From Microcoleus sp. Aus8_D2 (lineage in GTDB: Bacteria > Cyanobacteriota > Cyanobacteriia > Cyanobacteriales > Microcoleaceae), in contig NZ_JAUBUN010000017.1 in assembly GCF_036702665.1 (NCBI RefSeq), positions 1-41,768 on the forward strand: a stretch of 41,768 nt of DNA. The letters are read 5' to 3'. The first letter of the stretch is position 1, and every line of letters starts with the position of its first letter. Below, one piece after another: positions 23,087-41,768 of the stretch. A program made the translations under genes and the position numbers. Under the pieces are notes generated by a model, which worked only from the letters and a program-made list of their open reading frames with translations, did not search any database and was not told the origin of the DNA.

Positions 23087-23096
23087 AAACTTACCA

Positions 23097-24410: not shown

Positions 24411-24431
24411 GATGTAAATCGAGATCGCCAC

Positions 24432-24527: not shown

Positions 24528-24791
24528 TATCTAAGTATTGCAGTAAAAAAAACAAATGGCGATACCCACAAACAATTACCATTATAGAGGCAAATGAGTA
24601 AATCATTGCACAAGCTAAGTTGATTTATGTCAAAAATAGTTATTTTTTGTATCAAATTATTTACGCAAGTCAAAAATATTAAGAATTATTAAATTTTGGT
24701 AATGAGTAACGAATTCTCGCTCCGACAATTTCACGGACGTGTTAAGATTAGGTGCAAACAATCAAGAGTATAAGTTTACAAAAAAACTACC

Positions 24792-25628: not shown

Positions 25629-25778
25629 AACATAAACTTGGAAAAAACTTCCTTGACCTAACTATGGGCTTCATCTCTGTACTCATAAGTCAGCAATTTC
25701 AAGATAGGATACGCCTAATTCCCGATAAAATTCTGCTGGTCGCTGGAAGACTAACCGCTCATCATAATTTTGCAGAAT

Positions 25779-26921
25779 TTATGATAAGTGCATCGCCTCG
25801 TTATACAAAGTTTCATGCAGTTTGATAATGTTCTGCAAATCATGTGTAGCCATGCGCGATCGCCCACGCTTGCCCATCGCCAAGGCATCTTCTGGGTGAT
25901 CTAATATCCAAGCCATTGCTTCAGCAAGTTTTTCCACATCTCCTACCTTAATCAAAAAGCCACAGTCTCCCTCCAGCAAATCCTGGATACCCCGAATGTC
26001 TGTTCCGATGACCGGAATTTCGAGGCAAAAAGACTCCATTACACATCTGGGAAGTCCTTCTTGTTCAGAAGCCAGCAGCGTAGCTGCTGAGGCACGGCTC
26101 AAAGTGGGAATATCCCGGCGTTCCCCTAGAAAATGCACCCGTTTTTCTACTTTTAGATCAGATGCTAATTGCCGCATTTCTGACATCAGCGGGCCGTCGC
26201 CGGCCAAGGCTAAATGGACTTGCGATCGCTCTAACTTAGCAAACGCTAGGATCACATCCCGATGATGCTTGCGGGGAATAAATTCGGCTACTGACAGGAA
26301 TAGAGGATTTTCTTGGGTGATTCCCATTTCCTGACGTACTTGTTTAACATCAGTTTCAGAAATAGCATCGGGACTGTAATAATCGATATCTACGCCAATT
26401 CCCGGCATATAGCGGACTCGTTCTGATGGCAGGATACCATAGCGCTTTGCAGCCTCTTCATCTTCGCGATTAATTACTACTAAGTAATCAGTCCAAGCTC
26501 CAGCCAATTTTTCTAAATTGAGAAAGACGGTATTTTTTAGAGGTTTCCCGCCGCGATAAAAGTGAAAGCCGTGAGCCGTGTAAATTACTTTGAATTTTGC
26601 CTGCTTTTTCAAATCTTTGAGGGCATACCGGGTAACGAAAGCTGCTACAGGGGTGTGTACGTGAATTATGTCGTATGCTTCCTGGGCGACGACCTCTCTA
26701 ATTATTTGAGGAGCAAGAATTAAATTGCGGGGATCTAGAGGATTGCGAGACCACTTTACATCCCAGACGCGATCGAATGCTTGCAAGCATTCAGCAGACT
26801 CAGAAATTCCTTGAGCCATTGCATCTACTTTCCAGCCTTTTTTGCGGAAGTGAAGAGCAAAAGGGAGAAGAAATGCCTGGAGAGTAGCTGGAATGGTAGT
26901 GACAATCAAAAGGCTATTCAT
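25779..26921 (-). CDS. GT4-family (GT-B, group 1) glycosyltransferase
   Basis: E-x7-E region EQEGLPRCVMESFCLEIPVIGTD. Typical ~380-aa length. Confidence 0.85.
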   Translation of the reverse strand: MNSLLIVTTIPATLQAFLLPFALHFRKKGWKVDAMAQGISESAECLQAFDRVWDVKWSRNPLDPRNLILAPQIIREVVAQEAYDIIHVHTPVAAFVTRYALKDLKKQAKFKVIYTAHGFHFYRGGKPLKNTVFLNLEKLAGAWTDYLVVINREDEEAAKRYGILPSERVRYMPGIGVDIDYYSPDAISETDVKQVRQEMGITQENPLFLSVAEFIPRKHHRDVILAFAKLERSQVHLALAGDGPLMSEMRQLASDLKVEKRVHFLGERRDIPTLSRASAATLLASEQEGLPRCVMESFCLEIPVIGTDIRGIQDLLEGDCGFLIKVGDVEKLAEAMAWILDHPEDALAMGKRGRSRMATHDLQNIIKLHETLYNEAMHLS

Positions 26922-26937
26922 AAGTTGGCTTTGTGAC

Positions 26938-28887
26938 TTAATAATTTTCCTCTAACCAAGCTTGGAACATCAACACATTCCATAAACAGTATTTCCAATC
27001 GCGATCGCCCGCCAGGTGTTCTGCCCACTTTTGGCGAATTGGCTGTGGATTAAAAAACCCTTCTCTGCGCAACCGTTTTTCATCTAGCAACGCTTCTGCC
27101 CAATCCCGCAAAGAACCGCGCAACCAGCTATCAATCGGAACACCAAATCCCATTTTTGGCCGCTCTACCAAGTTTCTAGGCACGTATTTGTATAATACCT
27201 GACGCAACAACCATTTGCTTTGACCATGACGGACTTTCATAGATAGTGGCATTCGCCAAGCTAATTCCACCAACCGATGGTCTAATAGCGGTACGCGAAC
27301 TTCCAAACTCACACCCATGCTAGCTCGGTCTACCTTGACAAGGATATCGTCCGGTAAAAAGGTGGCGGTATCGAGATACATCATCCATTCTATGAAATTT
27401 GGGAAATCAGCTCTGTCAAAGCGATCGTTCATAGCTGTCAGTGGCTCTGAGCCACCAATAATTAATTCTGCTGGGTCTTTCCAGTGAGAAACAAAATTTC
27501 TGTACATAGCTTTGTAATTGGCATCTGCCACAATTTCAGCGAGTTTGTGCAATCTATCACCTGAGACAGAGTTTCTAAGGTTCAGTGGCAGTAAAGCACT
27601 AAAGTTAGGCAGAATTCGATCCCAAGTTTGAGGAGATAAGCTAGTCAAGCTATGCGCGACCATCGATCTCAGTCCTGAGGGTATCCAGTCTATCTTCTGC
27701 CTAATGCTGTTAGCCAAAAAATAGCGTTCGTACCCAGCAAAGATTTCATCGCCACCATCGCCTGAAAGACTTACTGTTACCTGCTGTCTAGCTAACTGTG
27801 ATACCAGAAAGGTAGGTACTTGAGAGACATCGGAAAAGGGTTCATCATATAAACTTGGCAACTTCGGGATGACTCCCAGCACCTCTTCTGGAGTCAGATA
27901 AAGTTCTGTGTGGTCTGTACCCAGGTGCTGTGCTACAGCCTTGGCATACTTGGCTTCATTGTAGGCATCCTCATCAAAACCGATACTAAAAGTTTTCACT
28001 GGTTGACTACTTTGAGCCTGCATCAAAGCTACCACTGTGGAGGAGTCAATCCCTCCTGAAAGGAAAGCGCCTAAAGGTACATCTGCAACTACTCGAAGCC
28101 CCACTGCATTCCACAGGAGCGCATCTAACTCTGCCACTGCTTCCGATTCCGAACCTGTGAAAGGATTGGCAACACCGAATGTCGCCACTTCCTTGATAGA
28201 CCAATAAGGTACTGGCTCCTGATGAGTACCTGCACTTTTACAAGTGAGGATTGTTCCGGGAGGTAACTTGTAGATGCCTTGGTAGATTGAATAGGGCGCA
28301 GGAATGTAGCTATACCGAAGAAACAATGTCAAAGCATCTCGGTTGATTTCCGCCTGAAAATGAGGATAAGCTTTCAGAGCTTTTAGTTCAGAGCCAAACA
28401 AAAAAGTTTGATCCACCCAGCCGTAATAAAGGGGTTTTTCTCCTAAGCGATCGCGCCCCAAATGCAGAACCCCCTCTTGACAGTCCCACAAGGCAAAGGC
28501 AAACATTCCGTTGAAACGCCGAATTGCCCGATCTAGCCCCCACTCGCTAAAGCTAGCCAGCATTACCTCAGTATCAGAATGACCCCGGAAGCGGTGACCT
28601 AACCGCTCAAGTTCGCCTCTTAACTCTAAAAAGTTATAAATCTCGCCATTAAACGCGATCGCATAACGACCGTCCGCACATACCATCGGTTGGTGTCCTT
28701 CCGGCGAGATATCAATAATAGCGAGGCGTCGATGTCCCAAAGCAATACCTTTCTGGGCATCTACCCAAATGCCACGATCGTCTGGTCCCCGATGTTCGAG
28801 GCTATCCGACATCTTTTCAGCTACAGACCCCATTTCTTGAGCAGACATTTGCTGAACGGCATCAAACAAACCAGTTATTCCACACAT
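26938..28887 (-). CDS. Asparagine synthetase (glutamine-hydrolysing) family amidotransferase (AsnB/WbpS-like). Likely a sugar-uronate amidotransferase in this context.
   Basis: The N-terminal nucleophile MCGITGLFD is present (Cys2 of class II GATase). The PP-loop is LSGGIDSSTVVALM. 649 aa. Confidence 0.85.
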   Translation of the reverse strand: MCGITGLFDAVQQMSAQEMGSVAEKMSDSLEHRGPDDRGIWVDAQKGIALGHRRLAIIDISPEGHQPMVCADGRYAIAFNGEIYNFLELRGELERLGHRFRGHSDTEVMLASFSEWGLDRAIRRFNGMFAFALWDCQEGVLHLGRDRLGEKPLYYGWVDQTFLFGSELKALKAYPHFQAEINRDALTLFLRYSYIPAPYSIYQGIYKLPPGTILTCKSAGTHQEPVPYWSIKEVATFGVANPFTGSESEAVAELDALLWNAVGLRVVADVPLGAFLSGGIDSSTVVALMQAQSSQPVKTFSIGFDEDAYNEAKYAKAVAQHLGTDHTELYLTPEEVLGVIPKLPSLYDEPFSDVSQVPTFLVSQLARQQVTVSLSGDGGDEIFAGYERYFLANSIRQKIDWIPSGLRSMVAHSLTSLSPQTWDRILPNFSALLPLNLRNSVSGDRLHKLAEIVADANYKAMYRNFVSHWKDPAELIIGGSEPLTAMNDRFDRADFPNFIEWMMYLDTATFLPDDILVKVDRASMGVSLEVRVPLLDHRLVELAWRMPLSMKVRHGQSKWLLRQVLYKYVPRNLVERPKMGFGVPIDSWLRGSLRDWAEALLDEKRLRREGFFNPQPIRQKWAEHLAGDRDWKYCLWNVLMFQAWLEENY

Positions 28888-29059
28888 TTAATTCTCTAAA
28901 CCTATAAAAATTGAGCAAATTTATCCCAGAATAGCCAATTATAAAGCATTTTATCTGTACCGCCTGTTGAAAGTTCTCTGATGATATGTAGCATAAAAAA
29001 AATTACCTATCATATTATTCACCTTTGGATGACAACTAATTCAATGTGGTGGTAAATTT

Positions 29060-30229
29060 TTATTTTTTTTTAATTAACACACTTTCATACAATTCCTCAT
29101 ACTGAGCTACAATAGAATCTAAGGAAAAATTTTCGATAATTCTGGTTCTTGCCGCCTTTCCTAAAGCATTCCTGCCTTCTAAACCAACTTTGATTAACTC
29201 TTTCCAAGCATCAGCCAATGCCTTTGGATTCTTTGGAGATACTATTCTTCCAGTATTAGAGACAATCCAAGCTGAATCGCCAACATCCGTGACAACGCAA
29301 GGTACGCCACAGGACATGGCTTCACCAATAACATTAGGAAAAGCTTCTCCATAGAATGAAGAAGAAGAAGCGATATCTAAGGCCGCAGTAAGACGAGGAA
29401 TATCCTGTCTATCGCCAAGTAAGTGAATGCGATCGACAATTTTTAACTCATGGATTAGTTGAGATAATATTTGGTTCTCCCAATTAACTTCATCCCCAGC
29501 CAATAAAAAATGTACGTCGGGATAATCTTTGAGTAAGATTGCTGCCGCTTCAAGGAAGTTAGCAAAGTCTTTCATTAGATGATAGCGAGCAAACCGACCA
29601 ATTAAAAAAGTATCACTTTCTAGTCCGAGTTCTTTTATAAGACTAGTCCGAAACTCAAGTGAAGGCATAAAATTTTCTGGATCAAAGCCATTGGAAATTA
29701 CAAGGGTTTTAGAGGCTTGGTATCCAAGTTGTTCGTGTTGACTAGCACCTGTTTTTGAGTTATATAAGATTTTTTCAGGAAAACTACTAATTTTAGCTAG
29801 AATCTTAATTATAGCTGATGTAGCTGGTTTTTCGTAATCCAATGAGTAAATAGAATGACGAATGTTCCACACTACAGGTATAGATTTTAAGGTAAAAATA
29901 CCAGCTAACTGTGCCGCTAAATTAGCATGATACATCCAGCCTAGTATAAGGTCAGGTTTTAATTGGCGGATTTGATGAATAAATTGCCAAATAGATTTTG
30001 GTGTAGGTTTACCTTGCTTCATGCCCATTATATAGACAGGGATGCCTAAAGCTTCAATGCGATCGCCCCACGTCCCACGATCCATTAAAGAAACCACAAC
30101 AGGACTAAACCGCTCCCGATTTATTCTGGACAGCAAATTGTAGAGCATTCTCTCTGCACCACCTGTTGACAGTCCGGTAGTGATATATATAATTGACACT
30201 TTTTTCTCGGAAATATTTTTATTACCCAT
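29060..30229 (-). CDS. GT4-family glycosyltransferase
   Basis: GEAFPNVIGEAMSCGVPCVVTDVGD (E-x7-E) is present. The N-terminus has a GGAERM-type Gly-rich loop. Confidence 0.85.
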   Translation of the reverse strand: MGNKNISEKKVSIIYITTGLSTGGAERMLYNLLSRINRERFSPVVVSLMDRGTWGDRIEALGIPVYIMGMKQGKPTPKSIWQFIHQIRQLKPDLILGWMYHANLAAQLAGIFTLKSIPVVWNIRHSIYSLDYEKPATSAIIKILAKISSFPEKILYNSKTGASQHEQLGYQASKTLVISNGFDPENFMPSLEFRTSLIKELGLESDTFLIGRFARYHLMKDFANFLEAAAILLKDYPDVHFLLAGDEVNWENQILSQLIHELKIVDRIHLLGDRQDIPRLTAALDIASSSSFYGEAFPNVIGEAMSCGVPCVVTDVGDSAWIVSNTGRIVSPKNPKALADAWKELIKVGLEGRNALGKAARTRIIENFSLDSIVAQYEELYESVLIKKK

Positions 30230-30318
30230 AGTTTTAATTTTATTTCTGCACTATCTTAGCATACATCGATTTGTCTGATATTAATTTTAATACAAAAAGG
30301 ACTTATTTTGCTGGGCCA

Positions 30319-30424
30319 ATAAAGAACATATAGCGGTTCTCAGATAGATGAGGTATATATCAAAGGTCGAAAACCTTGATGTACATAGAATCTGGCATAC
30401 CTCACCTTTGTGAGAAAGGCTATA
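30319..30424. mobile_element. Second copy of the MITE-like element (TATAGCGGTTCTCA…TGAGAAAGGCTATA), in inverted orientation relative to 24432-24527
   Basis: See 24432-24527. Located in the 213-bp gap between the GT and the Wzy-like gene. Confidence 0.6.
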
Positions 30425-30442
30425 CATAGCTTTGGTTATATA

Positions 30443-31786
30443 TTAACTTTTCTGTCGCAGAATAGATATTTTAGTTCCTACCAATATCAATAACGTACTT
30501 GATACTAATAATATGAATTGAGATTGCAAAAATGTTTCTGGATCGGCTGTTTGCATGATTGCCCATATTTGAGCTACTGCTGTATAAAAAGACGGCATCC
30601 AAAATACATCTTGGATATGCTTTTCCATCACAGATTGTAAGTACCCACCTAACCACCCATAAGTTAAACAAACTATAATCAGTCCTGGCCACCACAGACT
30701 ATATATACCAAAAGCAAGAAAGCCTGTTGGTATCGAATAATCAAATGCTCCTGTAATATACCTGGTGTTATAAGCTAATATTGTTTCCGGTGATTCCGTA
30801 CCTAGTAAACGATCTGGGACTAAAGAAAGAAACCCATAGATCAAATCTACGAACCAGCGTATTTCATAGTCTGCACCAAAAGCTGTGTCCAGCGAAAAAA
30901 CGGTAAAAAAAAAGTTGTCCATAAACTTGTATAAACTAAATCCTTCACCATCTGTGCTACCCTCAGCAGATTTGTTAAATCTATCAATAACAGCATCAAT
31001 ACCGTCTGGAATAGCCGCTAAGCTAGAGAAAAGATTTTTACCATAAAATAAGAATAACACCATTAAAACAACCAAAATAACACTAAACAACCAGGGTATT
31101 TTTCTGGTTTTAAGTATATAAATTTGGTAAAATCCAAGAAAGTAGTAGAGAACGTCAAAGCGCCCAGCCCTCACCAAAAAAGAAGAAACTGTTACGACTA
31201 GTGAGAAAGCAAATGATAGAATTATCAACAATTTTCCTGTCTTGGTCTTGATATCCTTCGTAAATACAAAAGCACATAATAAATAAGATGAGAAGCTTGC
31301 TGCTCCTAGAAATCTGATGAAAAATCCTAGTGAACCGGCCTGTTCTGTACCAGATCTAACGGCTATTGACTGTGTGATTGCATTGACAACTCCACCAAAA
31401 GCTGAACTATATATCTGAACTGACATAGCAGAAAATAGAAGCAAAAAAATGGCATATCCCAAAATCATCAAATTGTTACGAGCGTTTACCACTATACGTT
31501 GTCCAAACTTTTTAGCTGACTTTGAATAAAAGCCAATTAGTACAAAAAAATATCCGACAAATATTGCTAAAGCAGTTTGTATTTTGTTTGTATAACCAAT
31601 AATATTTATCCACGAACCTGTGACTGTATTTTCAGGGTCAAAAGCTATTAGAAAAGCAGGTAAAACATACCACATTATAAAAGCACAATTAAACATGGTT
31701 AGAAAATCTATGGGATTTTCTTTCCTTCTAAATATTTCAATTAATGGTATAATAAATAGCAAAACCAAGTAAGCAGAATCTAGCAT
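30443..31786 (-). CDS. Polytopic membrane protein, probable oligosaccharide repeat-unit polymerase (Wzy-like)
   Basis: 447 aa with at least 10 predicted hydrophobic helices and no soluble-domain motif. Its position among GTs next to a flippase fits a Wzy. The assignment is from context only. Confidence 0.5.
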   Translation of the reverse strand: MLDSAYLVLLFIIPLIEIFRRKENPIDFLTMFNCAFIMWYVLPAFLIAFDPENTVTGSWINIIGYTNKIQTALAIFVGYFFVLIGFYSKSAKKFGQRIVVNARNNLMILGYAIFLLLFSAMSVQIYSSAFGGVVNAITQSIAVRSGTEQAGSLGFFIRFLGAASFSSYLLCAFVFTKDIKTKTGKLLIILSFAFSLVVTVSSFLVRAGRFDVLYYFLGFYQIYILKTRKIPWLFSVILVVLMVLFLFYGKNLFSSLAAIPDGIDAVIDRFNKSAEGSTDGEGFSLYKFMDNFFFTVFSLDTAFGADYEIRWFVDLIYGFLSLVPDRLLGTESPETILAYNTRYITGAFDYSIPTGFLAFGIYSLWWPGLIIVCLTYGWLGGYLQSVMEKHIQDVFWMPSFYTAVAQIWAIMQTADPETFLQSQFILLVSSTLLILVGTKISILRQKS

Positions 31787-31792
31787 TTCAAA

Positions 31793-32923
31793 CTACCTTT
31801 GTCTGATTACAGATATTAATATGTTTTCGGTTTTTTCATAAAGTACCTTAGTTTGGAAATTTTCCTTAATGCGTGTTCTAGCCATTATAGATAACTTTTC
31901 TCTATTCATCTGTAATATTTCTAACCACCCCGCAAATAAAGCTTGAGCATTGCTAGGCGCTACTACCACTCCTGCATCTCCGACAATCCACTTGGAATCT
32001 CCTACATCTGTTACTACACATGGTACACCACAAGCCATTGCCTCTCCAATCACATTAGCAAATCCTTCGCCATAGGCAGAAGCAGAAGTAGCGATATCTA
32101 AGGCGTTGTGTACCGCAGGCATATCTGGTCGCGCTCCTGCCCAAATAACTCGTTCATTAATACCTAATTTAGACGTTAATTCATACAATTCCTGTGCATA
32201 GTTTTCCAGTCCTGTACCAACACAAACAAAGTGGACATCCTGTCTTTGTTTGCAGATTAATGCTGCTGCTTTGAGAAAGTTTGGATGGTCTTTCATCGGG
32301 TTTAATCGCCCCACCAAGCCAATCAGAATAGTGTTTTCGGAAATTTTCCATTCTGCTCTTACTTTTGCCCTAGCTTCTGAATCAGGCTGAAAACGTTTAG
32401 TATCCAGACCGTTAGGAATTACCACCATTTTGTCAGATGGAAATCCATGTGTTAGGTAATAGGTTTTACCAGCGTGGGAATTAACAATGATCGAGTCGGC
32501 AAAGGGAGATAAAAGACTCTCTAGCTGAGATAGTACACGCCCCAGCCATCCGTAAAGATCGGGATCGGTGTTGCTGCCACGGATTCCCCAAATCATTTTG
32601 GTTGAGGGGAATAATGGCTTTAAGAATATTGTTAATACATTTGATTCGCCGAGGTATCCGTGCAAGACATCAGGTTGTATGTGTTTAAGATGTTGAAACA
32701 AACGCCAAAAGAAACCGAATATATCCCAACGTTCCCGTTTTTCCAAACATATTAGTGGGATTTCATTGTCTTTAAGCTCTTTTTCTAAAGGGCCACCGCG
32801 ATAAAAGCATAAGACTATTACATCGAAGCTTTGTTTGTTAAGCCCTTTTACTAAAGTGACTAATTGCCTTTGAGCGCCACCATAGTTTAAATCCCGGATC
32901 AGGAATACAACATTTTGTCTCAT
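31793..32923 (-). CDS. GT4-family glycosyltransferase
   Basis: GEGFANVIGEAMACGVPCVVTDVGD is present. The start is set at MRQNVVFLIRDLNYGGAQR. The stop of the upstream gene overlaps this ATG. Confidence 0.85.
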   Translation of the reverse strand: MRQNVVFLIRDLNYGGAQRQLVTLVKGLNKQSFDVIVLCFYRGGPLEKELKDNEIPLICLEKRERWDIFGFFWRLFQHLKHIQPDVLHGYLGESNVLTIFLKPLFPSTKMIWGIRGSNTDPDLYGWLGRVLSQLESLLSPFADSIIVNSHAGKTYYLTHGFPSDKMVVIPNGLDTKRFQPDSEARAKVRAEWKISENTILIGLVGRLNPMKDHPNFLKAAALICKQRQDVHFVCVGTGLENYAQELYELTSKLGINERVIWAGARPDMPAVHNALDIATSASAYGEGFANVIGEAMACGVPCVVTDVGDSKWIVGDAGVVVAPSNAQALFAGWLEILQMNREKLSIMARTRIKENFQTKVLYEKTENILISVIRQR

Positions 32924-34035
32924 CGCGGAACCTCCACAATTTGCTTTAATAATTCTTCCCACTTTTCTACTATTTTTTCTAAGCTGAACCGTTCTTTAAC
33001 CTCTGGCGCACGAGCAGCTAGAGTTGTTCGCTTTTCTTCATCAGACATTAAAGAATCCATTGCTGTAGCTAAGGCTAACATATCTTCGGTTGGTACTAAT
33101 ATACCATCTACCCCATCGCGGATAATTTCTCGTGGCCCGCTAGGACAATCTGTGGAAACTACGGGTAATCCACAGGCTAATGCTTCAAACAAAACTGCTG
33201 GTAATCCCTCCCAACGAGATGATAAAATGAATAGCTGTGAGGATTTGAAAACTGCGATCGGATTTTTAGTTTGTCCCGGCAATAGAACTTGCTCGCCTAA
33301 ACCAAAATGATCTCTTAAATGTTCAAGTTCTTTTCTCATTTCTCCTTCCCCAAATATCAGTAATTGCCAGTCTGGATAGCGATCGATAATTTTATGAAAT
33401 GCTGATAGCAGCAGTTCAAAATTCTTTTGATATACCAGACGACCCATTGCTATCGCCCATTTTTTATTTGGATCTGCTCCTTGAGGTAAATCGAACGTAC
33501 CTGTCTCACCGTTAATTGGTTGCAACGGGTTAAAGATAACTGCTCTTTGTGTTTTTGGCAACCAGTCATCAAAATAATTATCGACTCCTTCACTGACGCT
33601 CACCACTTTGTTAGCTCGTGGGTATATCCAACGACGCAATTGCTTCCACAAGTTTTGAGTGTCAGTATCTGGATTATTCTGCTCATTAACTATAACAGGA
33701 TAGTTTGTCTGGGTAAGAGCTAACAATGTCAAGATATTTATTTCAGCCATAAACGAGATGACTGCATCTGGCTGAAGCGCTCGAATTGTTTGTCTTAATA
33801 CCCGAAGGCGGTACAGATTATTCCACAAAGCATGGAATGGTGTTGGTGAAATTCCAGCTAGATCCAGAGCTAATCTATGAACTCCATCTGGTACTTTGTA
33901 GAAATCTCTCTCGGTTCCAGCAATTGTTACAAAGGAAACTTGATGACCTTTTTTAAGCAATCCTTCAGCGATCAAAATCGCTGCTCGCTCGGCACCGCCA
34001 CAGGAAAGGGATGAAGTTAGTAAAGTCAGTCGCAT
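32920..34035 (-). CDS. GT4-family glycosyltransferase
   Basis: N-terminus LLTSSLSCGGAERAAILIAEGL. E-x7-E is WEGLPAVLFEALACGLPVVSTD. Confidence 0.85.
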   Translation of the reverse strand: MRLTLLTSSLSCGGAERAAILIAEGLLKKGHQVSFVTIAGTERDFYKVPDGVHRLALDLAGISPTPFHALWNNLYRLRVLRQTIRALQPDAVISFMAEINILTLLALTQTNYPVIVNEQNNPDTDTQNLWKQLRRWIYPRANKVVSVSEGVDNYFDDWLPKTQRAVIFNPLQPINGETGTFDLPQGADPNKKWAIAMGRLVYQKNFELLLSAFHKIIDRYPDWQLLIFGEGEMRKELEHLRDHFGLGEQVLLPGQTKNPIAVFKSSQLFILSSRWEGLPAVLFEALACGLPVVSTDCPSGPREIIRDGVDGILVPTEDMLALATAMDSLMSDEEKRTTLAARAPEVKERFSLEKIVEKWEELLKQIVEVPR

Positions 34036-34083
34036 TATTTTTAGATGATAACTAGAGTTAATAAGATAGCTTCAACACACAGT

Positions 34084-34902
34084 TTAATGATTCAAAACTA
34101 TTTTCTGTGCCACAGAAATAATGTATGGTGCAAATATCTTAGTTTCTGGGAGAGGCGCTGTATAGTATTCTATAGCCCAAACCAATTTAGAAATCCGACT
34201 GAGACTATTCATCACAAAAGCCTTTATTTTAGTTGTTGAATGTTGTGGATTAAGATGGCTTAAATTTAGCACCCCAAAATGCGTACTCATAAAGTAACCG
34301 CATTTGTTAACCTTTAAACCAGCATCTTCATGTACAAGCTGAAGTAGATGCTGATCTAAGAGAACGTGTATGTCATACGTCTGCCTGTCCAAAATTTTCT
34401 GGAAAAATCCAATACTTCCTGTCTGGTTAGGAATCAGAGTAATCAAAATCCCATTAGGCTTGAGAAATCTGGAAAAGGCTGTAATACAGCCAACGGTATC
34501 TGGAAAGTGTTCAGCAACACCAAAGGAAATCACTACATCAAAGCTTTCCAATAGATTTTCTGCTGGATTGAAAAAGTCAGAACAAACAATTTTTCCTTTT
34601 ATTTCAGCTTTTTGCAGTATTTTTTCTGCCTGTTGACACCCTAATTCAGAATAGTCTAGACCAAAAACTTGAAAATCAAATTCTTTAGCAAAATATGGAA
34701 GCTTATCAGATCTAGCACAGCCGATTTCAAGTAATCGCATCTCCTTTGCATCCAACTTGGAAAAAATCTCAGAAAAATATCGATGTAGACGAAGTTCCCG
34801 ATAATTTCTGAAATGAGGATGGTGGGGGTTCATTGGTTCTGGTAGCTCACCTGTTTCCCACCAGCTATCCCATAATTCTTTGCTGGCTTTACTATTAGTC
34901 AT
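34084..34902 (-). CDS. Class I SAM-dependent methyltransferase
   Basis: Motif I LLEIGCARSDKLPYF, and a D/E after the beta-2 strand (FGLDYSE). Confidence 0.7.
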   Translation of the reverse strand: MTNSKASKELWDSWWETGELPEPMNPHHPHFRNYRELRLHRYFSEIFSKLDAKEMRLLEIGCARSDKLPYFAKEFDFQVFGLDYSELGCQQAEKILQKAEIKGKIVCSDFFNPAENLLESFDVVISFGVAEHFPDTVGCITAFSRFLKPNGILITLIPNQTGSIGFFQKILDRQTYDIHVLLDQHLLQLVHEDAGLKVNKCGYFMSTHFGVLNLSHLNPQHSTTKIKAFVMNSLSRISKLVWAIEYYTAPLPETKIFAPYIISVAQKIVLNH

Positions 34903-36259
34903 TTTGCCTCCTTAACAAATAGAAACACCAGTATGATGTAAAACTCAAGCATATCATATATAAACAACTTGTAGATAATGCAATTCCGCTAATTCCAAGC
35001 ACTTTCATGAAAATGTAGTTTAAGCCGATATTGACTATTAAGTTAATCGCCGATCCCCACATTAGAATATGATTAGCCTGTAAGGCTGAAATCAGCCTTA
35101 CAACCAAAATATTCGCCACATAAAAAGGAATCTGCAAGGCATAAAATGCTTGTATTTGAGCTACTATAATAGTATCTTTGCTACTAAATGTCCCTCTTTG
35201 GAACATGAACTCAACAATTTTGTCAGATCCCAGATAGAAAAATGCTACCAATGGTACAGTTATGAGAAAGATTAAAAAAAGATAGCGCCTCAATGTATGA
35301 CGTATAGCGTTCCAATCTTCACTCGCAACCATTTTGGAAAAATATGGTATTACAGCAGTGCTTAAGGCTGTGGTTGTTAGGGTGATCGGCAAGGCAATTA
35401 TTCGATTACCATAGTTCAATGCTGCCACACTTCCCGATGGTAATTGTGCTGCCATAGCTTGATCGACCAAGCCGGCACTACACATTAAAAGTCCTCCAGC
35501 AATCATCGGAGCATATTGGTTAGCTACCTGACGCAGATGAGTATCAAATCCATACCATTTTGGCATTAATGAAATGTGTTGCTTCTTTAATGCCACTCCT
35601 AAAATAACAATTTCTAATATTTGACCAAACACGAGTCCGGCTGCTAAGGCAAAGACTCCCCAGGAATTGGCTAACAATAATAATATGATAGTAATAGCTG
35701 GGGTAATAATGGGAGAAATAGCTGCTAAAGCGAAACGCTCTCCTGCATTCAAAACAGCACCCCATATAGTGAGCATCCCACTGAGTAGAACCATTGGCGC
35801 GATCGCGCATAGCAGCTTAAATGTCAGGTCTAACTTTTCATCACTGAACCCACCTGCAATCCACGGTAAATACAGTGGTGCAGTCATCACCATTGCTAGA
35901 GTCGTAATTCCTAGTAGTCCGAGACTCCAGACTGTGGCTCCAGAAAAAAGTTTTTGAGCTACTGTTATACCTTCTTGTTCTCGTACTTTAATATAGGTAG
36001 GTATCAGTGCAACATTAAAAGAGTTGGCTACAACATTAACTATAAAAGAAGGAATCACTAAAGCAATTAAGAATGCATCCAAGGCATCGGTAGTGCCAAA
36101 TTTCCAAGCAACCGCCAATTCTTTAGCTAAAGCTGCTAATTTGACTAATGCTGTTCCTATAGCAACTATTAAAGCTGCACCTAAAATTTGACGATTGGGA
36201 GACCCAGTTGTCAAGTTTTTCCAAAAATCTAGCCATTTTTTATAGCGCAAAATTTTCAT
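34895..36259 (-). CDS. MOP-superfamily polysaccharide flippase of the MurJ/MviN (MVF) type (Wzx-equivalent)
   Basis: The N-terminal region KFGTTDALDAFLIALVIPSFIVNVVANSFNVALIP resembles the MurJ signature (FG…TDAF…P…AF). 454 aa with about 12-14 TM helices. Confidence 0.7.
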   Translation of the reverse strand: MKILRYKKWLDFWKNLTTGSPNRQILGAALIVAIGTALVKLAALAKELAVAWKFGTTDALDAFLIALVIPSFIVNVVANSFNVALIPTYIKVREQEGITVAQKLFSGATVWSLGLLGITTLAMVMTAPLYLPWIAGGFSDEKLDLTFKLLCAIAPMVLLSGMLTIWGAVLNAGERFALAAISPIITPAITIILLLLANSWGVFALAAGLVFGQILEIVILGVALKKQHISLMPKWYGFDTHLRQVANQYAPMIAGGLLMCSAGLVDQAMAAQLPSGSVAALNYGNRIIALPITLTTTALSTAVIPYFSKMVASEDWNAIRHTLRRYLFLIFLITVPLVAFFYLGSDKIVEFMFQRGTFSSKDTIIVAQIQAFYALQIPFYVANILVVRLISALQANHILMWGSAINLIVNIGLNYIFMKVLGISGIALSTSCLYMICLSFTSYWCFYLLRRQND

Positions 36260-36353
36260 TAAATACAGATCCGTTTTTTGTTAATTTTGGACGCTCATTT
36301 TTTATTAGCGGCATCATCGTTACAACCACTTGAGCTTCTATTTGCACGATCGC

Positions 36354-37799
36354 CTAACGTGTCCTAAAAAAATCCTTGCCTGAATAGTCACCTCCTGATG
36401 CTTTAGGAGCTACAATCACACTTGTTTGTAAGTAATTATAGCCTGTGGATGGTTCCCACACATTAAGATTAGCAAATCTTATTGAATATTCAGGACGATT
36501 ATATAATTTGGTAGTGGGATCTGGTAAGTTCAATAATACTTCATAAACTCCTGGAGGTATATTTGCTGGGATACCACCTTTAATATTTACGATTTTAGTA
36601 GTTCCTGGCATCCACAGACGAGGCTCTTCTGGTACTGGCAAATAGTATTCTTTTCGGGTTTGACGGTTACGCAAAATCGCTTCTAGTCGTCGCGGGTTGT
36701 ATGGACTAGCCCATCCATCATTGACAAGTGTCAAATTTATTGAAAAGCTACCACCAGGTTTTATTGTGTGGGGAATCACCGAATTCAAAAGACGAAAGCG
36801 GTAGCCTAAACGACGCTTGATTTCGGGCATACAGCCTTGATCCTCCCAAACTTTCAATACTTCTTGGTCAAATCTAGAGTTTAAGTCACTCCAGCGCATT
36901 TGTCGTAAATCTTTTAAAGCATTAAGGCAACCAATATAAGGTTGTGCTTCTCTGTCAGCGTTACAAGTTTCCCCTCCTTGAACTAGATAGCTGTTATCCA
37001 GGTTTAAAAAATTCTTTTCTCTTTCTACAATTGTGGGATCTGTACTCATATATGTACCCCAATCATCTATACTAGCTAAGAAACACTCGTTATTAGCACC
37101 TGTTCTGGCGCGATAAGTACCGTTGAAGGCGTCTTCAGGAGTAAGGGGATTTTGATTGTCATAAATATCTCTTTTATTTTTGGAGTAACGTAGCGCTACC
37201 ATTCTGTCTGCTGGAAGTACCGATAAAATTTTAAATAAAATGGTTCTCATGTCCTGAGTATTTAGCAGATTGTTGGTCGAACGATTCCATTCCCCCCAGT
37301 AACCAATAAAACCTGCATGGATGTATGCGATCGCGTCGTAGTTCTCTGCCAAAATTGGTCTCAACTGCTCCAAGTGTGAGATAATTCTGTCGCGCGGAGC
37401 ATCAGAACCACCTTCTAGCCAATTGTAGGAAAATTTGATAATCAATTTTACCCCTGCTTGGCGGGCTGTCTCGCAGTCCTGCGAAATCATCTCTAGGAAA
37501 GATTGTGATAGCGGTTTTTCTCGAAATTCTGAAAGCAGGTAAATTCTGCGCACCAAACTCATGTTCTGAGTTCTCACTTTTTGCAAGTCAGATAACTGCA
37601 AGGGAGAAACTGGGTTATTACCGATAGGGTTAAACGGTACGAAGAAACCTCTTTCTGGATTGGGAAAATCCTCAGAACTGCTTTCATACGTTACTGTGGT
37701 TTGATTAGAAGGAACAGTAGCAACAGTCGGTTGGTATGAAGCGATCGCAAACAACAAGATTGACCCCAAAGGAAACTTTATATATTTTGCCAAATTCAT
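36354..37799 (-). CDS. Secreted TIM-barrel glycoside-hydrolase-like protein (DUF4874/DUF4832-like). Putative polysaccharide-processing hydrolase.
   Basis: N-terminal signal peptide MNLAKYIKFPLGSILLFAIASYQPTVA. GYWGEW and GGETC segments occur, as in GH-like TIM barrels. The family assignment is tentative. Confidence 0.45.
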   Translation of the reverse strand: MNLAKYIKFPLGSILLFAIASYQPTVATVPSNQTTVTYESSSEDFPNPERGFFVPFNPIGNNPVSPLQLSDLQKVRTQNMSLVRRIYLLSEFREKPLSQSFLEMISQDCETARQAGVKLIIKFSYNWLEGGSDAPRDRIISHLEQLRPILAENYDAIAYIHAGFIGYWGEWNRSTNNLLNTQDMRTILFKILSVLPADRMVALRYSKNKRDIYDNQNPLTPEDAFNGTYRARTGANNECFLASIDDWGTYMSTDPTIVEREKNFLNLDNSYLVQGGETCNADREAQPYIGCLNALKDLRQMRWSDLNSRFDQEVLKVWEDQGCMPEIKRRLGYRFRLLNSVIPHTIKPGGSFSINLTLVNDGWASPYNPRRLEAILRNRQTRKEYYLPVPEEPRLWMPGTTKIVNIKGGIPANIPPGVYEVLLNLPDPTTKLYNRPEYSIRFANLNVWEPSTGYNYLQTSVIVAPKASGGDYSGKDFFRTR

Positions 37800-37922
37800 A
37801 ATTTTCCTGCCTTCCACTGTTGATTCTGCGATCGCTAAGTCATAAGACTGGGATTAACCTACTGATAAACCTATTTTATGGGGGAAATTGAGTAAGTTTG
37901 AAAATTCTCAATAAATTCCCCA

Positions 37923-40730
37923 TTAACTATGAGCAGTCATAGTGCCAATCAATGTCTCTATCTTAGAGCCTTCCACGGGCTTCGAGAAAAAGTATCCCTG
38001 GCCGTAGACGCATTTCAGCGCTTTGAGCTGAGCTATTTGCTCGCAGGTTTCCACCCCAGTTGCAATCATACCCATATCTAGCTCCTGCGCGATCGCAATA
38101 ATTTTTTGGAGAGTTTCTAAGTTAGCGTCATTACCCTCCAGCCCGCTGACCACAGAACAATCTAGCTTCAAACTGTCGAACTTCCCATACTTCATGCGTA
38201 TCAAGCGGTGGAGGCGAGTTAAAGATCGATCGCTCAAACCGCAGTGATCGATTTGCAATTGCACCCCTAAAGCTTTGAGTTTAACAAACACAGCGGTAGC
38301 TAGCTCAGAATTGTCGATCGCAACTTGCTCCGGAATCTCTATCTTTAAACTAGAAGCATCAAGCTTAGTTTCCGTTAGAATTTGGTAGAGTACCTCGCTT
38401 AAATCAGGTTGGAAAAACTGTTTGCTAGTCAGATTCACGCTGACTGTTAAGGGATCGTCAATATCAAATCGCTGTTGCCAAATTCGCAACTGGCTGCAAG
38501 CTTGACGCAACACCCACTCGCCAATAGGCACAATCAACCCCGTGGCTTCTGCCGCTGGAATAAACTCGTCTGGGACAAGAAATCCACGAGTCGGGTGCTG
38601 CCAGCGCAGCAGCCCCTCAAAACCTGTAATCTTATGAGTTTCCAGGCATACTATCGGTTGATAGTAAAGGCGAAACTCCTGAAGTTTAAGAGCTTGCCTC
38701 AAATCATTCTCTACGTCAACAGATACAACACTGTTGGAATTTGTCTGAACCTGCGGAGAATTTTCTGCGATATCCGTTTTTTCTTGGGCTATATTGGCGT
38801 GCAAATTAACAGTTGAATATCCCGGTATGTATTCAGGCACTAACTGCTCTAGCAAAAACACAATTAAATTGGCATCATTTCGATGAGCTGCTTGACAAAG
38901 GGCTTCTATGTCCTGCTCAATATTTTCTCGGACAATGCGGCTGGCATTGCCGAGAATCAGAATTTTTTCATGTTCAGTTTTGTCGTAGGTTTCCCCGGGA
39001 ATAAACAGTTCTTCAAACAATTTTTCTCCAGGCCGCAGCCCCGTGAAGACAATATCAATGTCTTTGCCCAACTCATATCCCGAAAGGCGAATTAAATCTT
39101 TTGCCAAGTCAACAATTCTGACTGGCTGCCCCATGTCGAGCATGAATACTTGACCCCCGTCACCGAGCACTGCCGCCTGCAACAGCAGTTGCACTGCTTC
39201 GGGAATTGTCATGAAATACCGGCTGATATCTGGATGGGTAATGGTGATCGGGCCGCCTTCAGCAATTTGCCGTTTGAAGGTGGGGACGACGCTGCCGCGA
39301 CTGCCGAGAACATTGCCAAAACGTACAACTACAAAGGGTTTCCCGCTTTTTTTTGCAGCTTGCAGCACCAGCATTTCTGCAACTCTTTTGCTGGCGCCCA
39401 TAATGTTAGTTGGATTCACGGCCTTGTCAGTCGAAATCATCACAAAATGTTCGACATCGTACTTCAATGCCATATCCAACAGGTTTTTTGTTCCCCGCAC
39501 ATTATTAGTAATGGCTTCAGGCGGGTTTAATTCCATCATGGGTACGTGTTTGTGAGCCGCCGCGTGAAACACAATATCTGGTCTAACTTTGTCAAACACG
39601 TACTCTAAGCGATCGACAAAGCGAATATCGGCTATGAATGTTGTTAATTGAGGGATATGTATTTTGAGTTCGCCTGCTTTTTGGAGTTGGGAAATCACCC
39701 GGTTTAGTTCTTGTTGAATGTTGAATACAGAGTTTTCTCCGTGTCCTACAAGGATCATTTCCGCAGGTTCTGATTTTAAAACTTGTCGGCAAAGTTCGCT
39801 GCCGATCGAGCCACCAGCTCCGGTAATTAGAACTTTTTTGCCTATGATAAATTCGGAAACTTTCTCGACATCAGTTTGGATGGATTCGCGACGGAGCAAG
39901 TCCTCAATTTGTACTTCCCTGACGCTGCCCAAGCTGACGCGGCAGTTGATGATTTCATTGATACCGGGCAGTGTACTGGTTGGCACTCCAATTGACTGAC
40001 AAATTTCTACGATTTCTCTAATTTCTCTTCCCGGGGCTGTGGGTATGGCAATGATAACTTTAGAGATATTTAACGACCTAACTATTTGGGGAATTTGATG
40101 GCGATCGCCTACTACACTTACTCCGCGAATCCGCAAGTTGAGCTTTTTCGGGTCGTCGTCAATGAAAGCTGCGGGGTAAAGTCCTAGCTGGGAACTCCGC
40201 TGCATTTTCTGCATCAAAGAAATGCCTGCACTCCCTGCACCGACTATCAGCAAGCGATCGCACCGCTGAAATTTCCGGCGTCTTTGGCTCAACCTTTCGA
40301 TCGCGGGAATGCTGAAACGAATGCCGCCAATAAACAAAAAGCTCAGCATCGCATCGAGCAGTGGCAGCGATCGCGGCAGTTTGTTGACCCCAAAAATACT
40401 CAGGTGAGCCAGCCCTTGGAACAGTATAGTTTCTAAGGCTAAAGCCACACCGATCAGCACCGCTATTTGTGCCAATTCGTCAATACCGGCATACCGCCAG
40501 TAACGCCTGTAGAACCCGAAGCTATAAAATACAGTTAGCTTTACTGCAACGAACAATACCGTAGCTACCGCTAGCCCGTACAAGTAGGGTGCAAGAGTAA
40601 AAGAATCATCTAAACGAATAGCTAGCGCCAATACGGGGGCGATCGCCAAACAAATCGTGTCAATCAACAAAAAATGACGGTTCCTCAATCTCAGCAAACC
40701 TTGGCTGATTTTTCTGATTATCCGGTTCAT
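37923..40730 (-). CDS. Fusion protein: membrane-anchored CapD/WbpM/PglF-type nucleotide-sugar 4,6-dehydratase (residues ~1-640) followed by a C-terminal EAL (c-di-GMP phosphodiesterase-type) domain (residues ~690-935)
   Basis: The CapD part has an N-terminal 4-TM region, LIVGAGSAGISL, VLITGAGGSIGSEL, FHAAAHKHVPMME, ISTDKAVNPTNIMGASKRVAE and FGNVLGSRGSVVPTFKRQIAEGGPITITHP. The EAL part reads YYQPIVCLETHKITGFEGLLRWQHPTRGFLVPDEFIPAAEATGLIVPIGEWVL…SVNLTSKQF…KIEIPEQ…QIDHCGLSDRSL…KLDCS…ATGVETCEQ…GQGYFFSKP. It is a single uninterrupted ORF. Confidence 0.85.
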   Translation of the reverse strand: MNRIIRKISQGLLRLRNRHFLLIDTICLAIAPVLALAIRLDDSFTLAPYLYGLAVATVLFVAVKLTVFYSFGFYRRYWRYAGIDELAQIAVLIGVALALETILFQGLAHLSIFGVNKLPRSLPLLDAMLSFLFIGGIRFSIPAIERLSQRRRKFQRCDRLLIVGAGSAGISLMQKMQRSSQLGLYPAAFIDDDPKKLNLRIRGVSVVGDRHQIPQIVRSLNISKVIIAIPTAPGREIREIVEICQSIGVPTSTLPGINEIINCRVSLGSVREVQIEDLLRRESIQTDVEKVSEFIIGKKVLITGAGGSIGSELCRQVLKSEPAEMILVGHGENSVFNIQQELNRVISQLQKAGELKIHIPQLTTFIADIRFVDRLEYVFDKVRPDIVFHAAAHKHVPMMELNPPEAITNNVRGTKNLLDMALKYDVEHFVMISTDKAVNPTNIMGASKRVAEMLVLQAAKKSGKPFVVVRFGNVLGSRGSVVPTFKRQIAEGGPITITHPDISRYFMTIPEAVQLLLQAAVLGDGGQVFMLDMGQPVRIVDLAKDLIRLSGYELGKDIDIVFTGLRPGEKLFEELFIPGETYDKTEHEKILILGNASRIVRENIEQDIEALCQAAHRNDANLIVFLLEQLVPEYIPGYSTVNLHANIAQEKTDIAENSPQVQTNSNSVVSVDVENDLRQALKLQEFRLYYQPIVCLETHKITGFEGLLRWQHPTRGFLVPDEFIPAAEATGLIVPIGEWVLRQACSQLRIWQQRFDIDDPLTVSVNLTSKQFFQPDLSEVLYQILTETKLDASSLKIEIPEQVAIDNSELATAVFVKLKALGVQLQIDHCGLSDRSLTRLHRLIRMKYGKFDSLKLDCSVVSGLEGNDANLETLQKIIAIAQELDMGMIATGVETCEQIAQLKALKCVYGQGYFFSKPVEGSKIETLIGTMTAHS

Positions 40731-40821
40731 AACACGCCCTACAACAACAACTACAGCTTACGCTCGTACCAAATTGCTTCTTTAAAATGTAGAATCTTCC
40801 TTCCCTCTTGTCTGGGAGAAT

Positions 40822-40848
40822 CCTACTTATCCTACTTATCCTATTTAT
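40822..40848. repeat. Triple direct repeat CCTACTTAT / CCTACTTAT / CCTATTTAT in the divergent promoter region
   Basis: Read directly, about 90 bp upstream of the CapD-EAL start codon. Confidence 0.7.
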
Positions 40849-41223
40849 CTACCTTTGACTGCCACTTGTTATAAGCTATTCGTAGACCCACACCCGCACG
40901 CTCAAATTTTTAACCGCTTCGGGGGGAGAACCTAAAGCAGATCGCTGAAACCAGATCGCATAGAGAAGCTCTACTATCTGCCATCTTTTTGATTCCACTT
41001 TGATGTACGCTCTTTATTATCCCACCAACCTCTTGCTGTTGTTCTAGTATGTTAAATACTTTATCAAACCAATAATATTTAGATATATGTATAAATTGGC
41101 ACCTCTGTTACATGGAATTCGTATAGTATAGACACGGTTAATCTTTCACTTATTGACCGCTACAGATTATTTTTTTTCTAATAATACTAAATATATCAAA
41201 AAAATATAATACTTAAGTATTAT

Positions 41224-41258
41224 TGACATAGGCGACGAAATATGATATGATAGAACCA
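41224..41258 (+). promoter_or_regulatory. Sigma70-like promoter TTGACA-N17-TATGAT upstream of the Wzc-like gene. An AGGAGG RBS lies at 41276-41281.
   Basis: TTGACATAGGCGACGAAATATGATATGAT read directly. The spacing and hexamers are near consensus. Confidence 0.5.
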
Positions 41259-41286
41259 TTTTATGTCATAAGTTCAGGAGGAATTT

Positions 41287-41768
41287 ATGGAGTCCGCAGA
41301 AACTGGTATAGGGTTTCAGCAATACTGGCAAATTATCAAGCGGCGCTGGCTGCCCGCCTTAGTCGTATTTGCCTCGGTTCTCGCATTAACTAGCTATAGT
41401 GTACTCAAGGAAAAGCCTGTCTATGAAGCCGAAGGCAAGCTTTTATTTAAAAAGACAAATCCTGCCTCTGCTTTAACAGAATTGGGAAAAGAAATAGGAC
41501 AGTTGACTCCAGCAGCAGAGCAAAGCAACCCCTTGACTACCGAAATCGAGCTAATTCGTTCTGTTGAACTTGCAGCAAAGACCATAAACAAGCTCAACCT
41601 CAAGGATCAAAAAGGCGACCCTCTAACAAGCAAAAGCTTTTTGAAAAACCTGACAGTGACAACTATTCGGGGAGCAGATATCCTGACGGTTTCTTACAAA
41701 AGTAAAAAATCCAAAGAAGCCGCAGATGTTGTCAAGAACATGATGGATTTTTATATAGAAAATAATGT
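41287..41768 (+). CDS. Polysaccharide co-polymerase / chain-length determinant (Wzz/Wzc/GumC-like), 5' part only; runs off the window
   Basis: The ATG at 41287 is preceded by AGGAGG. The N-terminus is YWQIIKRRWLPALVVFASVLALTSYSVLKEKPVYEAEGKLL, i.e. a cytoplasmic N-terminus, one TM helix and then a periplasmic Wzz domain (…DILTVSYKSKKSKEAADVVKNMMDFYIE). Confidence 0.75.
   Translation, partial: MESAETGIGFQQYWQIIKRRWLPALVVFASVLALTSYSVLKEKPVYEAEGKLLFKKTNPASALTELGKEIGQLTPAAEQSNPLTTEIELIRSVELAAKTINKLNLKDQKGDPLTSKSFLKNLTVTTIRGADILTVSYKSKKSKEAADVVKNMMDFYIENN

Follow-up and report, generated by a model that had tools for sequence, protein, structure and literature searches.

Contig NZ_JAUBUN010000017.1 of Microcoleus sp. 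Aus8_D2, whose whole 41,768-nucleotide stretch we refer to as the window, carries on its minus strand a single open reading frame (ORF) in which a membrane-anchored nucleotide-sugar dehydratase of the PglF/WbpM/CapD type continues into a C-terminal EAL domain. In the ORF listing of the window the frame starts with an ATG, encodes 935 amino acids and has zero internal stops. The gene and the parts of its product are the following.

37923..40730, minus strand: CapD/PglF-type dehydratase-EAL fusion gene, 935 amino acids, stop codon included (ORF list, Pfam, identical NCBI protein)
40278..40682, minus strand: N-terminal membrane anchor, residues ~17-151, four predicted helices (AlphaFold2 (AF2), Kyte-Doolittle, TIGR03025)
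39972..40259, minus strand: cytoplasmic Rossmann-like pseudo-domain, residues ~158-253, the C-terminal half of the CoA_binding_3 match (PF13727; AF2 strand/helix pattern over 158-253)
38955..39833, minus strand: catalytic short-chain dehydrogenase/reductase (SDR) dehydratase domain, Polysacc_synt_2, residues 300-592 (PF02719, match to PglF 5BJU, Foldseek)
38724..38819, minus strand: flexible interdomain linker, residues 638-669 (no secondary structure in the AF2 model, low model confidence)
37977..38708, minus strand: degenerate EAL domain, residues 675-918 (PF00563, match to the MorA EAL domain, Foldseek)
38223..38249, minus strand: D828-H829 at the position of the Asp-Asp (DD) pair, with a degenerate loop 6, HCGLSDRS for DFGTGYSS (MorA alignment, 205-member census)
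38058..38060, minus strand: T891 at the position of the essential catalytic Glu, RocR E352 / TBD1265 E703 (205-member census)

Pfam assigns residues 71-250 to CoA_binding_3 (PF13727, E 1.1e-11), residues 300-592 to Polysacc_synt_2 (PF02719, E 5.5e-117, 390.6 bits against a cut-off of 20.2) and residues 675-918 to EAL (PF00563, E 8.2e-61, 205.8 bits against a cut-off of 31.3). NCBIfam models of PseB/FnlA-type dehydratases matched in part, as did the EAL portions of numerous models of phosphodiesterases (PDEs) acting on cyclic di-GMP (c-di-GMP), none of them reaching its equivalog cut-off. The four helices that AF2 places in the membrane anchor (17-39, 47-70, 83-109 and 122-151) overlap strongly hydrophobic segments, found at residues 18-113 by Kyte-Doolittle analysis, and this region aligns with the N-terminal part of the TIGR03025 profile. 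The linker has a predicted local distance difference test (pLDDT) score of 25-33, and no other segment of the family alignment varies as much or has as many gaps; its length is conserved within clades. The original prediction had read the ORF as one polypeptide with a complete membrane-anchored CapD-type dehydratase and a true EAL domain, and had raised the worry of a missed stop or frameshift at about 38700-38800. That region turns out to be the linker. Because the same fused frame recurs in at least 205 relatives, and because NCBI lists a 100% identical protein under 'unclassified Microcoleus', a missed stop or frameshift is excluded. Both domain assignments stand: the first through Pfam, the AF2 helices and invariant motifs, the second through the PF00563 score and the quoted stretches YYQPIV, GFEGLLRW, SVNLT, EIPE, KLD, GVETCEQ and GQGYFFSKP, all of which are in the translation.

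The dehydratase half has all the sequence features by which PglF/WbpM/CapD proteins are recognised, namely PF02719, N-terminal helices followed by a pseudo-Rossmann domain, and the active-site motifs. Campylobacter jejuni PglF (WlaL, 5BJU) is its closest solved protein both by sequence (E 2.8e-85, ~43% identity) and by fold (Foldseek template modelling score (TM-score) 0.85-0.89 relative to PglF). The alignment with 5BJU contains the conserved block 'mistdkav', the S433-T-D-K436 block aligns with the catalytic residues T395/D396/K397 of PglF (numbered as in the PDB entry titles), and Met-x-x-x-Lys replaces Tyr-x-x-x-Lys. The nucleotide-binding G304-A-G-G-S-I-G, S433-T-D-K436 and M444-x-x-x-K448 (M444GASK448) are invariant in 116/116 family members. 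Judged by these residues, the fusion protein is a predicted membrane-anchored 4,6-dehydratase of PglF/WbpM/CapD type, acting on uridine diphosphate-N-acetylhexosamine (UDP-HexNAc) and with an intact site; homology and the neighbouring DegT and Bac_transf genes point to UDP-N-acetylglucosamine (UDP-GlcNAc) as the probable substrate and to a UDP-4-keto-6-deoxy sugar as the product. PglF of C. jejuni, WbpM of Pseudomonas aeruginosa and CapD of Staphylococcus aureus share with it the transmembrane helices, the Rossmann-like pseudo-domain and the SDR domain with T-D-K and M-x-x-x-K, as well as the partnership with a DegT aminotransferase and a small PglC-like transferase. However, these proteins end at ~590-665, whereas the fusion protein continues via the linker into an EAL domain of ~260 residues.

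The EAL half is confidently modelled by AF2 and superposes on c-di-GMP-bound TBD1265 (3N3T) with a Foldseek TM-score of 0.90; it has the TIM-barrel-like fold of the EAL superfamily, with TM-scores of ~0.90 and root-mean-square deviations of 2.2-2.6 Å to the EAL domains of TBD1265, MorA and BifA. Its best sequence match is the MorA EAL domain (E 2e-48), the match to FimX reaching only 4e-14. What the original prediction overlooked is that this real EAL domain is degenerate. In the alignment with MorA, vDDFGTGYSSLnyL------Kqf stands opposite iDHCGLSDRSLtrLhrlirmKyg, so that the second Asp of the DD pair is lost (D828-H829), loop 6 reads HCGLSDRS and six residues are inserted after it; further on, AEGVE of MorA aligns to ATGVE, with T891-G-V-E894 in place of EGVE.

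We carried RocR numbering over from MorA via the spacing of the conserved residues (Q161/E175/R179; K316+36 = E352; E352+20 = Q372), a mapping that is confirmed by the description of an 'E352xxE355' motif (PMC12943098). In that study, replacement of the first Glu of the motif in TBD1265 (E703A) abolished PDE activity while E706A had no effect, loop 6, DFG(T/A)GYSS, was essential, and EAL dimerisation ran through the loop 6 region. An intact catalytic site has been defined by seven residues, E175, N233, E265, E268, D295, K316 and E352, with Q161, R179, D296 and D318 recognising c-di-GMP (PMC2952852).

The canonical residue was counted at each of these positions across 205 full-length family members. 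It is present at Q161 in 205, E175 in 205, R179 in 186 (His in the other 19), N233 in 202, E265 in 198, E268 in 200, D295 in 204, K316 in 189, D318 in 196, E355 in 203 and Q372 in 205, so that the eleven positions of c-di-GMP contact and first-metal binding are 91-100% conserved. Two positions behave in the opposite way: Asp occurs at D296 in 0/205 members (Asn in 122, His in 60, Gln in 13, Lys in 6 and Arg in 4), and Glu occurs at E352 in 0/205 (Thr in 142, Ala in 35, Val in 18, Met in 3, Ile in 3, Asp in 2 and Ser in 2). As a control, the same positions were read in a sample of 50 non-fused EAL relatives, whose identity runs from 50% to 31% and among which is another EAL protein of Microcoleus vaginatus. 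The DD pair, mostly as DDFGTGYSS, is kept in 50/50 of them, as are the first Glu of ExxE (mostly AEG(V/I)E, with one xEAxE) and a canonical or near-canonical loop 6. Fused loci from the same material have D[H/N] (L001, L002 and L017), and two of them, L001 and L002, also have a scrambled loop 6 and ATG(V/I)E; the L017 match ends before these positions. Since the 50 non-fused relatives are canonical, the degeneration of the EAL domain is a derived trait, universal in the fused clade, and not alignment noise. Column conservation within the domain is 0.6-0.83, and the pocket residues are held even though members share only ~34-50% identity in the EAL region; by these measures the domain is under purifying selection, and the pocket and first-metal residues strongly so.

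Compared with active EAL c-di-GMP PDEs, the fusion EAL therefore lacks the complete seven-residue site (T891 for E352), the DD pair and the DFG(T/A)GYSS loop 6. The two ligands that serve only the second metal in the two-metal site of TBD1265 are thereby gone, one of them being the proposed catalytic base as well. The combination of catalytic loss with retained contact residues is that of the degenerate c-di-GMP receptors of the LapD/FimX type. Hydrolysis of c-di-GMP by the fusion EAL is thus predicted to be very unlikely and ligand binding likely, which narrows the earlier 'binding or degrading' to binding, the E352 residue, the second Asp and loop 6 being lost in every member.

Full-length relatives with both domains number at least 205 and come from separate isolate genomes and metagenomes. 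The best 120 database matches, down to 57% identity, carry PF02719 and PF00563 in 120/120 cases, nearly all of them being 895-956 amino acids long and a few shortened. A profile built from the five most divergent members again gave two-domain proteins as 120/120 of its best matches, with cyanobacterial names only. The named hosts, all of them cyanobacteria, are Microcoleus, Oscillatoria nigro-viridis PCC 7112, Tychonema, Phormidium, Moorena, Leptolyngbyaceae, Aerosakkonemataceae, Cyanosarcina, Merismopedia, Pseudanabaena, Pleurocapsa PCC 7319, Stanieria PCC 7437, Chondrocystis, Xenococcaceae and Waterburya; two complete genomes, PCC 7112 and PCC 7437 (CP003614, CP003653), are among them. Among 1.84 billion cluster representatives, searched exhaustively, the fusion falls into about five full-length clusters at 50% identity (P0121-P0125), 5/5 of which were confirmed as CapD plus EAL; the next proteins in the list were ordinary CapD proteins of 620-680 amino acids. 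Among the matches listed for GTDB species genomes, both parts stand together only in cyanobacterial loci (L001, L002, L017). Neither these matches nor the named hosts of the divergent-member profile search include a fusion outside cyanobacteria, which does not prove its absence elsewhere. The family thus appears, from these searches, populous yet phylogenetically compact.

The fusion gene lies at the head of a polysaccharide cluster, the features of which are listed here.

17140..37817, minus strand: downstream polysaccharide cluster with a DUF4874/DUF4832 protein, a MurJ-type flippase, methyltransferases, five family 4 glycosyltransferases (GT4), an AsnB-type amidotransferase, an SDR epimerase, a 447-amino-acid protein, a FemAB/GNAT-like acyltransferase, a small PglC-like Bac_transf protein and a DegT aminotransferase (Pfam and NCBIfam scans)
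24792-25628, plus strand: methyltransferase gene within the cluster, on the opposite strand
40731..41286, no strand: divergent intergenic region of 556 bp, with promoter-like sites at 41223-41251 (plus) and 41269-41242 (minus)
41287..41768, plus strand: N-terminus of a divergent Wzz/Wzc-type co-polymerase gene that runs off the window (translation; PF02706 Wzz)

On the strand of the fusion gene the order is DUF4874/DUF4832 protein, MurJ-type flippase, methyltransferase and two GT4, followed by the 447-amino-acid protein, a GT4, the AsnB-type amidotransferase and a further GT4, and, farther along, by a methyltransferase, the SDR epimerase, the FemAB/GNAT-like acyltransferase, another methyltransferase, the PglC-like Bac_transf protein (212 amino acids) and the DegT aminotransferase. 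By homology, the dehydratase, aminotransferase, acyltransferase and small phosphoglycosyl transferase would form a PglF/PglE/PglD/PglC-like module. This module supports the earlier description of the dehydratase as the first committed enzyme of the pathway, a role that remains predicted from sequence. The 447-amino-acid ORF (30443-31786, minus strand) has no Pfam match; since related loci encode Wzy_C proteins at this place, it may be a divergent Wzy, a candidate by its position alone. Four more ORFs in the window have no Pfam match: 23472-24179 (minus), 23097-23408 (minus), 3616-4221 (minus) and 11850-12320 (plus).

The same arrangement is found in other hosts. We compared the window with five loci (L081-L085), from Phormidium ambiguum, Cyanosarcina, Stanieria PCC 7437, O. 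nigro-viridis PCC 7112 and a divergent metagenome contig; in 6/6 loci the fusion gene heads a one-directional Wzx/Wzy-type operon with flippase, GT4 and Wzy-like genes. The window and 3/5 of the comparison loci also show a small Bac_transf gene. The divergent Wzc-like gene occurs in 4/6 loci: in the window its PF02706 match (E 4e-5, 24.2 bits) falls just below the cut-off of 25.5, and in L081, L082 and L084 a full-length gene with GNVR and P-loop regions, ~740 amino acids, lies divergently upstream.

In the divergent intergenic region a consensus scan found back-to-back promoter-like hexamer pairs, 11/12 with an extended -10 TG on the plus strand and 10/12 on the minus strand; promoter-like sites are no more numerous in 40731..41286 than in shuffled sequence. 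Use of the minus-strand site would give the CapD-EAL mRNA a leader of ~500 nucleotides. A c-di-GMP riboswitch or other known RNA in this region was rejected, Rfam at E <= 1 returning only one chance match to a long non-coding RNA.

The DUF4874/DUF4832 protein directly downstream of the CapD-EAL gene (36354-37817, minus strand) has an N-terminal hydrophobic segment. DUF4874/DUF4832 proteins recur right after the fusion gene in several family loci, with two in Cyanosarcina (L082, 13278-14720 and 15566-17068) and one in L084 (12858-14339), and may be conserved partners in the polysaccharide pathway. Two of the cluster's SAM-dependent (S-adenosylmethionine-dependent) methyltransferases, at 22328-23086 and 18940-19701 (both minus strand; 252 and 253 amino acids), are paralogues with 64% identity; with the two others (34084-34902 and 24792-25628), a total of four suggests that the polysaccharide is heavily O- or N-methylated. 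The AsnB-type glutamine amidotransferase (26938-28887, minus strand) strongly resembles the XrtA/PEP-CTERM system amidotransferase model TIGR03108 (E 8e-185, 616 bits, below the cut-off of 817) and suggests uronic acid amidation in the polymer; a UDP-glucose dehydrogenase (12419-13924) and a UXS/ArnA-like SDR (14058-14996) are encoded near it. Between the DegT gene and these UDP-sugar dehydrogenase/decarboxylase-like genes, on the opposite strand, lies a Coq4-family ORF (16264-17052, plus strand; PF05019, E 1.5e-32), a family unexpected inside a cyanobacterial sugar cluster.

How might the EAL domain serve a dehydratase that heads a Wzx/Wzy operon? On balance we favour, by a modest degree of confidence, the reading that it is a non-hydrolysing c-di-GMP receptor of the LapD/FimX kind, tethered to the enzyme. 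We read it as a receptor rather than an enzyme because the catalytic and second-metal residues and loop 6 are lost, while the c-di-GMP and first-metal residues are kept. In the proposed mechanism the dehydratase would make the 4-keto-6-deoxy intermediate from UDP-HexNAc; starting from it, the DegT aminotransferase, the acyltransferase and the small PglC-like phosphoglycosyl transferase would assemble and load the sugar that primes a Wzx/Wzy-dependent polysaccharide. The linker of ~30 residues, modelled as disordered, would tether the EAL domain to the C-terminus of the dehydratase, and c-di-GMP occupancy of the EAL domain would alter the oligomeric state or conformation of the dehydratase, or the way it meets its pathway partners, so that the supply of the initiating nucleotide sugar would be gated by the c-di-GMP level in the cell. 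The simplest signal route would be ligand-dependent oligomerisation of the attached enzyme, the loop 6 region being remodelled; our guess at the sign, by analogy with other polysaccharide systems, is activation at high c-di-GMP.

Like LapD and FimX, which are known c-di-GMP receptors and to which we liken the fusion EAL by its residues, it has lost catalytic residues, has kept the pocket and forms part of a larger protein whose output the EAL domain is thought to control. It differs from them in being much closer to active PDEs, as the MorA and FimX E-values cited above indicate, in keeping all first-metal ligands, in having no GGDEF partner domain and in having as its output a metabolic enzyme instead of a periplasmic protease trap or a pilus regulator.

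Several points weigh against a c-di-GMP receptor that controls the dehydratase. The binding of c-di-GMP, an effect on the dehydratase and the sign of that effect are predictions from conserved residues and the domain fusion, and the 'hard-wiring' of c-di-GMP into the pathway that the original prediction proposed is likewise an extrapolation from those residues. The residues that some authors list for c-di-GMP recognition include D296, which is replaced here. At R179, 19/205 members have His, and in 16/205 the Lys of K316 is exchanged; some lineages could therefore bind weakly or not at all. The retained first-metal ligands could permit slow residual hydrolysis. The AF2 model of the whole protein (mean pLDDT 80, predicted TM-score (pTM) 0.52) contains no confident contact between the dehydratase and EAL domains, which appear to be joined through a flexible tether. 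With no confident arrangement of the two domains in the model, it does not allow an allosteric route to be proposed, and Foldseek found no solved structure spanning both domains. As to the breadth of the family, host taxonomy covers the named records, and many members are metagenome contigs.

The most serious competitor to the receptor, though we regard it as unlikely, is that the EAL domain is a ligand-independent dimerisation or docking module that does not sense c-di-GMP, like the EAL-like domains of YdiV or BluF/YcgF; it would assemble the dehydratase with itself or with partners, for instance the Wzc-like co-polymerase or the phosphoglycosyl transferase. A dead catalytic site, a loop 6, the EAL dimerisation region, that is remodelled and carries a family-specific six-residue insertion, a long tether suited to docking and a divergent Wzc-like gene that is often adjacent would all fit such a role, but the 91-100% conservation at eleven ligand- or metal-contact positions, among members that are only ~34-45% identical over the domain, is hard to explain with an empty pocket. 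EAL-like domains that have ceased to bind c-di-GMP are generally known to lack most of these residues. It seems quite improbable that the pocket instead binds a related nucleotide, pGpG or another cyclic dinucleotide, the dehydratase then answering c-di-GMP turnover or another messenger. The degenerate EAL domain of FimX has been crystallised with pGpG (PMC3527489), and the replacement of both D296 and E352 changes the pocket near the scissile phosphate; however, the guanine and phosphate contacts (Q161, R179, D318, Q372 and the aromatics that follow) are those used for c-di-GMP, and nothing specific to another ligand was found.

We consider it very improbable that the EAL domain is an active PDE, lowering c-di-GMP locally at the polysaccharide machinery, or a trigger enzyme. 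Its strongest sequence and fold matches are indeed the active PDEs MorA, TBD1265 and BifA, it retains the first-metal ligands and K316, and His829 could in principle bind metal. Against this, the equivalent of E352/E703, without which activity is abolished (E703A), is absent from 205/205 members; D296 is absent from 205/205 with a replacement that varies (H, N, Q, K, R), hence no conserved metal ligand; and the DFG(T/A)GYSS loop 6 is lost. The site also falls short of the seven-residue definition of an intact one. The census of E352, D296 and loop 6, with the non-fused relatives as control, led us to reject the active PDE. Least credible of all, to a vanishing degree, is an artefact in which sequencing or assembly error has joined two adjacent genes: we found no point in its favour, and it is ruled out by the same continuous frame in at least 205 proteins from separate assemblies, including the complete genomes CP003614 and CP003653, with a linker length conserved within clades.

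Outside the polysaccharide cluster the window encodes, at its left end, a complete polyphosphate kinase 1 with all four PPK domains (292-2472, minus strand), which appears unrelated to the cluster. A 1319-amino-acid STAND (signal transduction ATPase with numerous domains) NTPase (7171-11130, minus strand), composed of NACHT, HEAT repeats and NCAB1/NCC-H C-terminal modules, adjoins a 483-amino-acid protein of the phage integrase family (5576-7027, minus strand) and a low-GC stretch at ~3000-6000 (36-39% against ~45% elsewhere). The region resembles a mobile or conflict-system island, and the PADLOC matches for the NACHT protein were no more than marginal.

Direct action of a second messenger on a polysaccharide biosynthetic protein, as opposed to transcription, is known from the PilZ domains of BcsA and Alg44, from PelD and from PgaCD. 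The Caulobacter holdfast glycosyltransferase HfsJ and acetyltransferase HfsK are likewise under post-translational c-di-GMP control. In these cases the target is a synthase, a co-polymerase, a glycosyltransferase or a modifying enzyme, whereas in the fusion protein the sensor would sit on a nucleotide-sugar dehydratase, before the lipid carrier is loaded. Few c-di-GMP receptors are known from cyanobacteria: a 2023 review calls the downstream targets 'poorly investigated', and the cyanobacterial receptors named in the literature that we found are the PilZ domain of cellulose synthase, CdgR and ComFB. The cyanobacterial c-di-GMP surveys and reviews and the receptor review that we searched contain no mention of a dehydratase or nucleotide-sugar target, and the full-text literature searched, mostly outside subscription journals, so that a published mention is possible, has no description of a CapD/WbpM/PglF-EAL fusion or of a c-di-GMP input acting on a nucleotide-sugar dehydratase. 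The original claim that the fusion is undescribed therefore stands as far as the papers searched go and fails for the databases, where a fusion widespread in cyanobacteria, the prediction's own ground for refutation, is in part what was found: JGI/IMG labels these proteins 'FlaA1/EpsC-like NDP-sugar epimerase/EAL domain-containing protein', while NCBI calls them only 'polysaccharide biosynthesis protein' or 'CapD'. The fusion is thus neither rare nor unannotated in databases and is new to the literature searched. What differs here is the output domain and the pathway step, degenerate-EAL receptors and post-translational polysaccharide control being already established.

A second type of signalling fusion at the same place was found in P0212 (760 amino acids; locus L086, 8001-10283), a CapD-family dehydratase in which a C-terminal response-regulator receiver occupies the position of the EAL domain. 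Its gene lies directly downstream of Bac_transf and DegT genes, and its input would be two-component phosphorylation, not a nucleotide messenger; it is a single sequence. Receiver domains commonly act through dimerisation. Because this receiver fusion exists beside the EAL fusion, a signalling input at the CapD C-terminus has arisen more than once, and the parallel suggests that the C-terminus of CapD dehydratases is a general regulatory port. Other CapD relatives carry a C-terminal Bac_transf (P0226, P0255) or NTP_transf_5 domain (P0267).

The fusion family is a candidate effector in many mat-, crust- and biofilm-forming cyanobacteria, among them Microcoleus, Oscillatoria, Phormidium, Moorena, Pleurocapsa and Stanieria. 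We tentatively propose, as a plausible but by no means assured reading, that c-di-GMP directly gates priming-sugar supply through a non-catalytic EAL domain, which would be a form of substrate-level control undescribed in any polysaccharide system and a widespread effector in filamentous and pleurocapsalean cyanobacteria. Because the putative sensor and the enzyme it would control are one polypeptide, a single purified protein would suffice to test the idea. If true, the second messenger would act where the nucleotide sugar is made, ahead of lipid-carrier commitment, instead of on polymerisation or export; the production of exopolysaccharide and of the soil-crust matrix would then follow a different regulatory logic.

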